Shown piece by piece: positions 1-2,205 of a stretch of DNA of 3,534 bases. Source of the stretch: a virus (taxonomy: Duplodnaviria > Heunggongvirae > Uroviricota > Caudoviricetes); IMG/VR virus record IMGVR_UViG_2648501165_000012; one strand, given 5' to 3'. The translations under genes and the position numbers were made by a program. The notes under the pieces are model-generated. The model saw only the letters and a program-made list of their open reading frames with translations, had not been told where the DNA came from and did not search any database. Each line of letters starts with the position of its first letter. Position 1 is the first letter of the stretch.

Positions 1-342
1 ATGATGAAAAAAAGTATTCTGGCGTTTCTGTTACTCACCAGTTCTGCAGCGGCGCTGGCTGCACCGCAGGTGATTACCGTCAGTCGTTTTGAAGTGGGTA
101 AAGACAAATGGGCGTTTAATCGCGAAGAGGTGATGCTGACTTGCCGACCGGGTAATGCTTTGTATGTTATTAATCCGAGTACCCTCGTGCAGTATCCTTT
201 AAACGATATCGCACAAAAGGAAGTTGCCAGTGGGAAGACCAATGCCCAACCCATTTCGGTGATTCAGATTGATGATCCTAACAATCCCGGCGAAAAAATG
301 AGTCTGGCACCGTTTATAGAACGAGCTGAAAAACTCTGTTAA
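1..342 (+). CDS. yebY: Small exported protein with N-terminal signal peptide, 113 aa, two Cys (C48, C113); YebY-like (DUF2511-type) host gene
   Basis: Complete ORF from ATG at 1 to TAA at 340-342. The N-terminus [23 protein letters not shown] is a typical Sec signal peptide with an AxA cleavage motif. It is followed by an intrinsic terminator. The yebY assignment rests on the 113-aa length, my recollection of the protein, and the adjacent SdsR/RyeB sRNA, which in E. coli lies in the pphA-yebY intergenic region. Not verified by search. Confidence 0.7.
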
Positions 343-371
343 TTACCTAAAATAGCCTTTTGATTTCCAAT

Positions 372-413
372 AAAAAAACCGCCTCAGTTCTTTCACCAGA
401 ACGGGCGGTTTTT
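372..413. terminator. Bidirectional rho-independent terminator: A-tract, GC-rich stem with nested inner stem, T-tract
   Basis: A7 run at 372-378; outer stem ACCGCC (378-383) pairs with GGCGGT (404-409); inner stem GTTCT (387-391) pairs with AGAAC (398-402); T-run at 409-413. The A-run on one side and T-run on the other allow termination on both strands: yebY on + and an antisense RyeA-like transcript on -. Confidence 0.6.
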
Positions 414-484
414 AACATTTCAGCTGATGACCACCACGCTTTTTATTGACCATTTTGCACGCAAACTGGAAAACCTGGCGTCGT

Positions 485-499
485 CATCTATTCTTAAAG
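485..499 (+). promoter_or_regulatory. Putative sigma-S-type promoter -10 element for SdsR (TCTATTCTTAA)
   Basis: CTATTCT at 488-494 with C at the -13 position and TAA immediately downstream resembles the extended sigma-S -10 consensus (CTAYRCTTAA), positioned 6-7 nt upstream of the predicted sRNA 5' end near 500. No good -35 at correct spacing, which is typical for sigma-S promoters. Confidence 0.45.
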
Positions 500-603
500 G
501 GCAAGGCAACTAAGCCTGCATTAATGCCAACTTTTAGCGCACGGCTCTCTCCCAAGAGCCATTTCCCTGGACCGAATACAGGAATCGTATTCGGTCTCTT
601 TTT
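500..603 (+). ncRNA. sdsR: SdsR (RyeB) small regulatory RNA
   Basis: About 104 nt with no coding potential. Contains a perfect palindrome GCATTAATGC (519-528), a hairpin GGCTCT/AGAGCC (544-549 with 555-560), and a terminal intrinsic terminator: stem CCGAATAC (572-579) with GTATTCGG (587-594), then TCTCTTTTT (595-603). The sequence matches my recollection of E. coli SdsR/RyeB. 5' end approximate. Confidence 0.75.
581..603. other. Probable prophage attachment-site core (attL-type junction) overlapping the last ~23 bp of sdsR
   Basis: The host-like sRNA sequence ends at 603 and an integrase gene ends at 735, with arm-like elements between. As I recall, the last ~23 bp of ryeB were reported as an integration hot spot for prophages in Salmonella. 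The exact crossover point cannot be determined without an empty-site or attR sequence. Confidence 0.5.
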
Positions 604-615
604 AATTGTATTTAA

Positions 616-628
616 AATCAATTAGTTG
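616..628. promoter_or_regulatory. IHF-consensus site (AATCAAttagTTG), candidate H' site of the P' arm
   Basis: Exact match to WATCAANNNNTTR, located between the putative core (ending at 603) and the tandem repeats (from 637), as the H' site sits in the lambda attP P' arm. Confidence 0.4.
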
Positions 629-636
629 CAAGCGTC

Positions 637-668
637 TCCCCGAAATTCCCCGAAATTTACTCGAATTT
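637..668. repeat. Tandem direct repeats TCCCCGAAAT x2 plus a degenerate third copy (CGAATTT); candidate arm-type Int binding sites
   Basis: TCCCCGAAAT at 637-646 and 647-656 are identical and adjacent; CGAATTT at 662-668 is a partial third copy. The position, 70-130 bp from the int stop and 35-65 bp from the putative core, mirrors the lambda P'1-P'3 arm sites. Confidence 0.45.
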
Positions 669-734
669 CTGTATTCCGGTCTTTTTTGGTTATATCACAA
701 CCAATATACATTTAACAATCCATTTACGTTAAAA

Positions 735-1811
735 TCAGAGCAGTAAGTACGTTTTTTCTCGCTCATCAAGATACATTTTTGTTGTCTTCTCCGATGTGTG
801 ACCAAGTAGGCGCTGGGCAAATTCTTCTCCACATGTTTCTTTGTACAATCGTCCAGCCAGACTTCTGATCTCGTGAAAAGTTGGTGGGTTTTCACTGAAC
901 TGGATACCTGTTAATTTTCTGGCTGCGACAAATTTTTTTGTCAGGCCATCCGGGTGAATGCTGCCGTCAGGGCTGTTTTTTCTAATCCCGGCACTGATTA
1001 GATAATCTCCCCGGCTTACTAGGCGGCATCGTTCAACTACTGTACCAAGCCGTAGACCAGCGACAGGAAGGCTGAGTGACAGAGGGATAGCAATCATCAT
1101 TCCTGTCTTAATTTGCCTGATGTGGAGACGGTCATCATAAATATCACTGAACCGCATATTCGTTATGTCTTCGCGACGTTGTCCTGTTACAAGGGCTAAA
1201 TCCATAGCTAATGGGAACCATGCCGGAAGTTGATCTGCTGCCTCCCTGATGCAGTTGTATGTCTTTAGTTTCAGTCGTTCTCTTGTAACTACTATTTTCG
1301 GTGCTCTTGTTGGCGTGACTGGATTTTGAGATATACGTCCTTCAACAATGGCCTCGCGAAACATATCAGACAACACAGAACGCATTGATCCTGCCATTGT
1401 GTTTTTCCCTCCTTCAATCCACAAATCAAGAAACTCGGCAATATGGCGAGTGGTTATTTCTGTCAGTAAAATCTCTCCCAATTTTTCTTTTATTGTCTCC
1501 AGTTGATTTACCCGGATTTTATAAGTATTTCTGGACACTTTTCTCCTTATAAGAATCGTTTTGTAACGTTCAATCCAGTCTGCCATAGTAAATGAGTCGA
1601 ACCCTTTAAGCTTTTCAATTAAGGCAGCAGGAGAGTAGTTTTTGTATATATAATGATTTGCTTCAATTGCCTGCGCTACTGCATCTCTTCTTGAAATTTT
1701 ACCTAGTGTAAATTCTTCTTTCGTCAGAGGGTTGCGCCAGTAATATGCTTTGTCCCTCCTTCGATATGTTAAGTTTTTAGGCAAATTGGGATCGTATTTT
1801 TTCCGCTGCAT
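735..1811 (-). CDS. int: Lambda-family tyrosine integrase (phage integrase), 358 aa
   Basis: The ORF aligns along its whole length with lambda Int as I recall it, including the N-terminal arm-binding region ([27 protein letters not shown] versus lambda PPNLYIRNNGYYCYRDPRTGKEFGLG). Catalytic residues are all present: R in [10 protein letters not shown] in [10 protein letters not shown]-x-x-R in [11 protein letters not shown], and H and Y in [17 protein letters not shown]. Divergent from lambda Int, perhaps about half identical by eye. GGAG lies about 11 nt upstream of the ATG. Confidence 0.95.
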
Positions 1812-2058
1812 GTTTTAACTTCTCCAGTAACGGACTGTCTCTCCCTTGTCGCCCATTAGGCTGATGGTGTGTTATATCGGTATCAACCTTATTTGGGTTG
1901 ATATAGAAAGCCTCCGGAACCACCCTGTAACTCCTCCCGTGTAGTTCAGGTGCAGGATAAATGTTTCCATTCCTTGCCCATCGTCTCAGCGTTGATATTG
2001 ATGGTGGATTATCCGGATATCTGAGTTTCCCCCACGTTTTGAGTGTCACAAGATTCAT
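1777..2058 (-). CDS. xis: Excisionase (Xis), lambda-like; 3' end overlaps the int start by 35 bp
   Basis: MNLVTLKTWGKL...ISTLRRWARNGNIYPAPELHGRSYRV resembles lambda Xis (MYLTLQEW...SLETVRRWVRECRIFPPPVKDGREYLF). The start is chosen at the second ATG (2058), which has AGAGG 7 nt upstream; the 95-aa ORF-track version starts at 2064 with only a 1-nt spacer. An xis-int overlap is also seen in lambda. Confidence 0.8.
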   Translation of the reverse strand: MNLVTLKTWGKLRYPDNPPSISTLRRWARNGNIYPAPELHGRSYRVVPEAFYINPNKVDTDITHHQPNGRQGRDSPLLEKLKHAAEKIRSQFA

Positions 2059-2081
2059 TGCCATACCTCTTACGATATGAC

Positions 2082-2108
2082 CGCCAGTAAATATACAGAA
2101 TACTGGCG
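2082..2108. other. Perfect 8-bp inverted repeat (CGCCAGTA ... TACTGGCG) with 11-nt loop, immediately upstream of the xis ribosome-binding site
   Basis: Arms at 2082-2089 and 2101-2108. No flanking T-run in the direction of transcription, so it is not a canonical intrinsic terminator. Possible RNA stem-loop or protein-binding palindrome. Confidence 0.3.
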
Positions 2109-2205
2109 GACGTGATTGATTTTTAATAATCAGCTATGAAGTTCTAATTTGGATATAATGCAACTCACGAGGACAGAAGTTTCTCGCAATTAAAATTTAT
2201 CAGTT

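Follow-up and report, generated by a model that had tools for sequence, protein, structure and literature searches.

Where a host small RNA (sRNA) gene ends a short distance from a lambda-family integrase gene, the question arises of whether the end of the RNA gene is itself the phage attachment site, and of what an insertion there would do to a locus that is transcribed on both strands. Such an arrangement is found in a 3,534-nucleotide stretch of tailed-phage DNA (Caudoviricetes; IMG/VR virus record IMGVR_UViG_2648501165_000012), which is referred to here as the window. A first-pass annotation, made from the letters of the sequence, had read it as a prophage inserted into the 3' end of the SdsR/RyeB sRNA gene. 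The analysis below leads us to conclude, with high confidence, that the window is attL, the left junction, of a ~44-kb lambdoid prophage integrated site-specifically at the 3' end of sdsR (ryeB), between yebY and pphA.

On the host side, yebY (1-342, + strand) matched DUF2511 (PF10709, E = 2e-45), is annotated as yebY in both E. coli K-12 and E. coli 13E0780, and is a conserved host gene upstream of sdsR. It is followed at 372-413 by a putative bidirectional hairpin terminator, read from the sequence as an A-run, an ACCGCC...GGCGGT stem and a T-run, which would be common to yebY (+) and ryeA (-); the 3' end of K-12 ryeA maps by annotation to about position 370, near this hairpin, and a simple terminator scan across the region including 372-413 did not report a hairpin there. 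The sdsR promoter region (460-499, +) is 100% identical to that of K-12 and holds a candidate sigma-S type -10 element (CTATTCT, 488-494, by reading of the sequence); in K-12, the sdsR transcription start and its sigma-S dependence have been established by experiment.

SdsR itself is complete at 500-603 (+), as assigned by mapping of the K-12 sdsR annotation (b4433) and by Rfam. The first-pass annotation had claimed an intact host sRNA ending at 603 that an SdsR covariance model should recognise, and the match was strong: SdsR_RyeB (RF00111) aligned to 504-603 (+) over the full model (positions 1-100) at 116.4 bits, against a gathering score of 38 (E = 3e-23). The gene lies directly downstream of yebY on the same strand, which is the synteny of SdsR/RyeB, and the predicted fold consists of three hairpins (z = -4.2), with structure and energy equal to those of the K-12 allele. 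SdsR appears to keep both its K-12-identical promoter region and a Rho-independent terminator hairpin with a U tail, placed by terminator scan and folding at 569-597 (+), with an 11-bp stem (569-579/587-597) and a 7-nt loop (AGGAAUC, 580-586); within the stem, 570-579 and 587-596 form a perfect inverted repeat separated by 7 nt. SdsR regulates porins, mutS and other targets, and it is described as a toxin with RyeA as the antitoxin.

On the opposite strand to sdsR, the SraC_RyeA model (RF00101) matched 607-463 (-) at 178.9 bits (gathering score 37), and this match, together with K-12 coordinates, assigned 370-604 (-) to the body of ryeA/sraC, nt 38-272 of the K-12 RNA, lacking its own promoter and first 37 nt. 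Such a full-length Rfam match does not amount to an intact RyeA, because the model is limited to the stretch that lies opposite SdsR and past it. K-12 ryeA (b4432) maps from the equivalent of 641 to 370, with its 5' end ~37 nt past the sdsR 3' end; the native sigma-70 promoter and 5' end are absent from the window, in which phage DNA starts at 605, and the native 5' part was found at attR in 13E0780.

The phage side begins with int (735-1811, -), which encodes a 358-aa lambda-family tyrosine integrase (PF00589, E = 9e-17; PF22022; PF09003). Its arm-binding domain (PF09003) covers residues 3-61 at 28.1 bits, against a cut-off of 22, in a region that also matches 1kjk; residues 8-353 align end to end with lambda Int (5j0n/1z1b, E = 1.5e-72), in the alignment to 5j0n every one of the lambda residues R212, K235, H308, R311, H333 and Y342 has its equivalent, and the protein is ~41% identical to HK022 Int. 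The excisionase gene xis (1777-2064, -; PF07825, E = 6.5e-14), annotated as such in 13E0780, overlaps int by 35 nt, and to its right lie a DUF1187 gene with RalA antitoxin RNA, ralR/lar, a lambda-type exonuclease gene and the start of bet.

Alignment to K-12 located the junction between the two sides. Window 343-604 is identical to K-12 except at 589 (A in the window, G in K-12), no similarity was found from 605 on, and the break in host identity at 604 falls one base beyond the annotated sdsR end. The window stops short of attR, which was therefore examined in a proxy genome, E. coli 13E0780, that has 0 mismatches to window 1-2205 and diverges from it after ~2520. In 13E0780, a lambdoid prophage extends ~43.8 kb from the sdsR junction to just upstream of pphA; the annotation gives frameshifts in its terminase and capsid protease genes, and that copy may not be inducible. 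Its attR reads ...GACGAAA-ACAGGAATCGTGTTCGGTCTCTTTTTA-TCTGTTAAAAGCC..., followed by the K-12-identical ryeA 5' region and pphA, and repeats the 27 bp of window 578-604 with one mismatch, G for A at the equivalent of 589. A free-phage counterpart was found in the phage genome PP818812.1, whose int region is 96% identical at the DNA level and 98% at the protein level, and whose attP consists of a P arm, ACAGGAATCGTATTCGGTCTTTTTTTA, and then a P' arm collinear and nearly identical with that of the window. The attL core was accordingly defined as 578-604, the 27 bp common to attL, attR, attP and attB in the K-12 alignment, the 13E0780 attR, the free-phage attP and the IMG/VR markers described below, and, judged by sequence, all four sites are accounted for. 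The first-pass annotation had looked for an end of host identity near the sRNA end and for a second copy of the core at the far prophage end; K-12 identity indeed stops at 604, and the core is duplicated beside pphA, in the proxy genome. It had further given a ~23-bp core acting as attB, of which the site was confirmed and the length was not: identity here spans 27 bp (578-604), interrupted by a single mismatch at 589.

An arrangement of this kind could also be left by a prophage that has become fixed and non-excisable, in which case the junction would be the fossil of an old integration and not a working attL. We regard this as unlikely, if worth keeping in view: the annotated terminase and capsid protease frameshifts in the 13E0780 copy speak for it, as does at least one related contig (L064) in which the IHF site and arm repeats have been deleted, whereas the integrase keeps all catalytic residues, xis is intact, 13E0780 has neither att site and neither arm disrupted, and the deposited phage record PP818812.1 combines attP with an integrase 96-98% identical to that of the window. 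Sequencing errors could account for the annotated frameshifts, and this explanation bears on the present activity of the element only, not on how it arrived.

For the site-specifically integrated prophage, the interval of strand exchange was narrowed using positions that differ between phage and host. At 589, A is the phage allele and G the E. coli attB allele. Junctions at the IMG/VR loci listed for the core (at least 120) were sorted by their flanks into an attL type, with SdsR at the left, and an attR type, with K-12-like DNA at the right. Among the matches listed, attL-type junctions combined host T at 577 with phage A at 589 in 68/69 cases, and attR-type junctions had host G at 589 in 10/10, with phage A at 577 in 9/10 and T in 1/10. 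Because of these markers at 577 and 589, the exchange was placed within 578-588; the switch between host and phage DNA would be confined to this interval (ACAGGAATCGT), which includes the 7-nt SdsR terminator loop. With the position of the overlap based on the two flanking markers and on hairpin symmetry, the most economical model, and the most likely one, is that the terminator loop forms the overlap region, with the two halves of the stem serving as inverted core-type Int sites. Past the right side of the loop, identity continues for 18 bp, the stretch needed for the 3' stem half and U tail, and the last ~16-25 nt of the window SdsR would come from the phage. The predicted structure and energy of SdsR are the same with A or G at 589, and a stabilising effect of the phage A on the terminator, relative to the host G, was rejected on that ground.

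The 131 bp from the core end at 604 to the int end at 735 were compared with the arms of lambda attP. The segment 605-734 was assigned to the phage P' arm of attL by its lack of K-12 similarity beyond 604 and its collinearity and near identity with the attP of PP818812.1. A predicted IHF-like site, AATCAATTAGTTG (616-628, +), would be the analogue of lambda H' and is the only perfect WATCAANNNNTTR match in the window; at least one perfect IHF consensus occurred in 38/200 whole-window shuffles, so that the match by itself is weak evidence and not significant window-wide. It is followed by three tandem arm-type repeats (637-668, +), candidate analogues of lambda P'1-P'3, which read CCCGAAATT at 639-647, CCCGAAATT at 649-657 and CTCGAATTT at 660-668 and comprise a 10-bp tandem repeat (637-657) and a third related copy ending at 668. 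The motif CYCGAAWWW, which was derived from these three copies and whose count in the window is not independent of that definition, matched the window at these three places only, spaced 10 and 11 bp apart; it then turned up independently in the P arms of both attR and attP, ~115-155 bp to the left of the core, beside an inverted and nearly identical version of the IHF-like site (ATTCAATTAGTTA).

The same layout recurs across the integrase family. Among the IMG/VR matches listed, integrases 47-100% identical to the window integrase lie ~130 bp from the same core in every case, with three tandem CGAAA-type repeats at the matching place beside each of them. Conservation, calculated as mean identity to the window base over 22 aligned non-redundant arms among the matches listed, was 0.98 for the core, 0.81 for the repeat block, 0.49 for the IHF-like site at 616-628 (0.5-0.9 at its T-C-A and TT positions) and 0.36-0.52 for other arm segments, with 0.36-0.50 in the flanks of the repeats. 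Across the family the repeats keep their CGAAA core, and within the integrase the N-terminal domain is better conserved than the rest; co-variation between arm-binding domain and arm repeats was considered and rejected, the outcome being conservation. Taken together, the spacer looks like a lambda P' arm in its order of core, H', P'1-P'3 and int, which fits the arm-binding domain, and the first-pass claims of a lambda-family integrase ending at 735, 131 bp away, with IHF-like and tandem-repeat elements in between, hold up against the domain matches, the lambda Int alignment and the elements at 616-628 and 637-668.

Further elements were noted toward int. The right half of the core recurs in degenerate form (ATTTCTGTATTCCGGTCTTTTTT) at 665-687 (+), seen as a direct repeat (592-602/677-687) and an inverted repeat (574-585/665-676); within it, TAT.C.G at 672-678 is ~0.9 conserved in the 22 arms, and in contig L064 a deletion runs from the core to this second core-like copy, with loss of the IHF site and arm repeats. 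To our knowledge, no second core-like element of this kind is part of lambda attP. The element at 665-687 and the TTATATCACA block at 690-699 could be undescribed functional sites of the integrase family. The region 650-700 was also considered as a second terminator and rejected (-8.1 kcal/mol, z = -1.5, not significant).

The conservation of the core bears on a different account of the shared 27 bp, by which they would be passive host DNA picked up in an imprecise excision, with Int recognising some other feature and sdsR a mere neighbour. Identity extending 18 bp past the right edge of the proposed overlap exceeds what a core-type binding site needs and would suit that account, which we nevertheless consider very improbable, as the extra length is what rebuilding of the terminator stem and U tail requires, the core stays at 0.98 across arms whose integrases go down to 47% identity and whose neighbouring spacer has diverged (among the matches listed), and the two flanking markers place the exchange inside the block.

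Site occupancy was surveyed in 5426 complete E. coli genomes. Window 343-604 was matched in 5426/5426, and only 228 continue through the integrase gene; a 301-bp K-12 query across the junction found the attB junction uninterrupted in 5191 genomes and interrupted in 235. The sdsR 3' site is thus occupied in ~4% of complete E. coli genomes (228-235/5426), nearly always by a close relative of the window integrase. A scan for the core returned at least 120 IMG/VR contigs that carry it, and an integrase scan of genome contigs returned two near-identical loci, in E. coli and Shigella. That a prophage came to lie beside sdsR by chance or by non-specific insertion, such as transposition or homologous recombination, has nothing found in its favour and next to no probability, being refuted by the identical break point in 228 E. 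coli genomes, by the core directly repeated at both ends of an element with a tyrosine integrase and an excisionase, by the same core in at least 120 viral contigs and by the exchange markers.

By site-specific integration at the sdsR terminator, Int, a full-length lambda Int homologue, would recombine the attP core with the matching host sequence, exchanging strands inside 578-588, where the halves of the terminator stem would act as inverted core-type Int sites, a role we infer from their position; the P' arm, with the IHF-like site and three arm-type repeats, would serve the Int N-terminal domain. At attL, the phage-borne 3' stem half and U tail rebuild a complete SdsR of unchanged predicted fold. 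The ryeA sigma-70 promoter and first 37 nt are moved to attR, ~44 kb off, which leaves the antisense body opposite sdsR without a promoter of its own. The first-pass annotation had claimed both that insertion regenerates the sdsR 3' end and that it replaces the 5' region of the antisense partner; the first agrees with a complete SdsR that folds as the K-12 allele does, and the second with the presence of the ryeA promoter and first 37 nt at attR in 13E0780. A search for a phage-side promoter replacing that of ryeA gave only one weak match (732-703, -), within chance expectation. At attR, the ryeA promoter would produce a chimeric RNA with ~26 nt of complementarity to SdsR, running into the P arm, in which no terminator for this transcript was predicted. 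The insertion also separates pphA from the sdsR promoter, which normally transcribes it by read-through.

The mapped start of ryeA in K-12 lies beyond the junction, and its promoter further out. In K-12, the sdsR promoter is subject to interference from transcription of ryeA, RyeA and SdsR each bring about the degradation of the other, and pphA mRNA comes mainly from sdsR read-through (Choi et al. 2019). On the basis of these K-12 results, lysogens are expected to have less functional RyeA, no interference from the ryeA promoter on sdsR, more SdsR and altered control of pphA, which would be cut off from its read-through transcription. pphA may lose both promoters reported for it, namely that of sdsR, which provides most of its mRNA by read-through, and an older heat-shock promoter further upstream. 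In the text available from the literature on sdsR/ryeA and from papers citing Balbontin et al. 2008, no pphA consequence of insertion was found. We put forward as a tentative possibility, less likely than not, that insertion in E. coli reaches beyond RyeA, with pphA taken off both promoters, sdsR freed of interference and ~4% of strains re-wired, and that the P'-arm elements at 665-687 and 690-699 are functional. If true, ~4% of E. coli would carry a re-wired SdsR/RyeA/PphA circuit, with a higher level of SdsR as toxin and regulator and an orphaned phosphatase gene, in a state reversible by excision. Strain differences at the sdsR locus could affect stationary-phase physiology. The host sRNA would be restored, and the antisense RNA and the read-through gene would not; lysogeny would therefore be a regulatory change as well as a gain of genes.

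The closest known system is the ryeA/ryeB insertion hot spot of Salmonella enterica (Balbontin, Figueroa-Bossi, Casadesus, Bossi, J Bacteriol 2008). As a review relates that work, the attachment site of PhiW104 falls inside the final 23 bp of ryeB, and its insertion alters the 5' part of ryeA, lowers ryeA and raises ryeB. The integration hot spot at ryeA/ryeB named in the first-pass annotation has a published source. As far as that account goes, the E. coli site resembles it in the placing of att, at the 3' terminus of ryeB/sdsR and inside ryeA, in the regeneration of ryeB and replacement of the ryeA 5' region, and in its repeated use by different elements. The marks of an attachment site described there are also found here, namely the break at 604 and, in the proxy genome, a 27-bp repeat with one mismatch at the far end; the differences are the host, E. 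coli, and a block of 27 bp with one phage/host mismatch in place of 23 bp. The changes in RyeA and SdsR proposed above agree with those described in that account for PhiW104 lysogens of Salmonella. Elsewhere, ryeB has been listed among the sRNA targets of phages (Bobay et al.), and the GLASSgo paper describes prophages 3' of SdsR and partial SdsR 3' copies adjoining prophages. The window is an E. coli instance of an already known hot spot, whose principle and site were published in 2008; what is added here is the placing of strand exchange within 578-588, the phage/host marker at 589, the finding that the arm architecture is conserved throughout the family, and the ~4% occupancy in E. coli. 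Its value lies in confirmation, finer mapping of the exchange and an E. coli census, not in discovery.

Compared with lambda, the element has a three-domain Int with all catalytic residues and an xis that overlaps int, and, at the level of sequence, an apparently lambda-like order of core, IHF-like site, three tandem arm repeats and int, with a P arm carrying arm repeats and an inverted IHF-like site. It differs in that Int is only ~40% identical to lambda/HK022, the core and arm sequences are different, and the target is an sRNA terminator and not the gal-bio intergenic attB. A parallel for the target is the use of tRNA and tmRNA genes, for which Williams 2002 is cited as describing palindromic targets in tRNA genes and integration that regenerates the 3' end of tRNA/tmRNA genes. 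As in those sites, going by that description, a conserved structured RNA gene is used, with a symmetric stem, a 7-nt loop that probably contains the crossover and a phage-carried 3' part that keeps the gene whole; unlike them, the hairpin is the Rho-independent terminator of an Hfq-type sRNA, both strands are transcribed, and neither the antisense RNA nor pphA, which depends on read-through, is restored. The locus is a clean example of a regulatory sRNA whose terminator hairpin serves as a phage attachment site, much as tRNA genes do for other phages.

Within the P' arm, the phage DNA at window 605-734 that separates the 27-bp core (578-604) from int, the right half of the core recurs in degenerate form at 665-687 as ATTTCTGTATTCCGGTCTTTTTT, with the block TTATATCACA following at 690-699. 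Alignment of 22 non-redundant arms showed that TAT.C.G (672-678), within the core-like copy, and parts of the 690-699 block are each conserved at about 0.9, unlike the remaining spacer DNA, which has diverged among the same arms.

Two IMG/VR contigs carry the core in altered surroundings. In IMGVR_UViG_2728369554_000022 (L064), whose integrase is 99.4% identical to that of the window and whose core lies at 578 on the reverse strand, the core is joined directly to GGTTATATCAC, an 85-bp deletion that runs from the core to the second core-like copy. This deletion removes the IHF site as well as the arm repeats and would probably leave the prophage locked in its site. In IMGVR_UViG_2667528172_000001 (L019), the core occurs twice, at 557-580 and 8868-8891, with 8.3 kb between the copies and a different P' arm after each, an arrangement that suggests tandem elements occupying the same att site. 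A (CGGAAA)n repeat lies before the second of these copies.

Comparison of the window with the E. coli lysogen 13E0780 (L002) showed identity up to position 2205, and again from 2216 to approximately 2520, beyond which, near the ralR/exonuclease junction, register or identity is lost. The window prophage is therefore a mosaic relative and a different prophage from that of 13E0780. The interruption at 2206-2215 is a run of 10 Ns, replacing 37 nt found in the otherwise identical 13E0780 sequence, and it falls within RalA (2169-2320). This antitoxin sRNA, which forms a type I toxin-antitoxin pair with RalR, is present in the window, with an Rfam score of 111 against a threshold of 170. Because the N run stands for 37 nt, this sub-threshold score is an assembly-gap artefact.

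In the lysogen sequence L003, pphA lies downstream of phage tail-fibre genes and on the same strand (L003 23150-23185 and 23867). A hairpin, AAAACCGGAG...CTCCGGTTTT, which was not flagged by a simple terminator scan, is found 3' of the last tail-fibre gene, and may stop late transcripts short of pphA.

The opening bases of the Rfam consensus for RyeA, the antisense partner of SdsR (SraC_RyeA, RF00101), AauUAAAAA, agree with the phage-derived AATT at window 604-607 and disagree with K-12, which reads AGATAAAAA. In addition, the start of the model falls well within the true RyeA. A full-length RF00101 match is therefore no proof of an intact ryeA gene.

Over int and attP, PP818812.1 (L004, 'Actinobacillus phage vB_Apl-pPE4') is 96% identical to the E. 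coli window prophage. Its record names Actinobacillus pleuropneumoniae as the host, and its core is the 3' end of enterobacterial sdsR. This host assignment seems questionable and may stem from the induction of an enterobacterial prophage.
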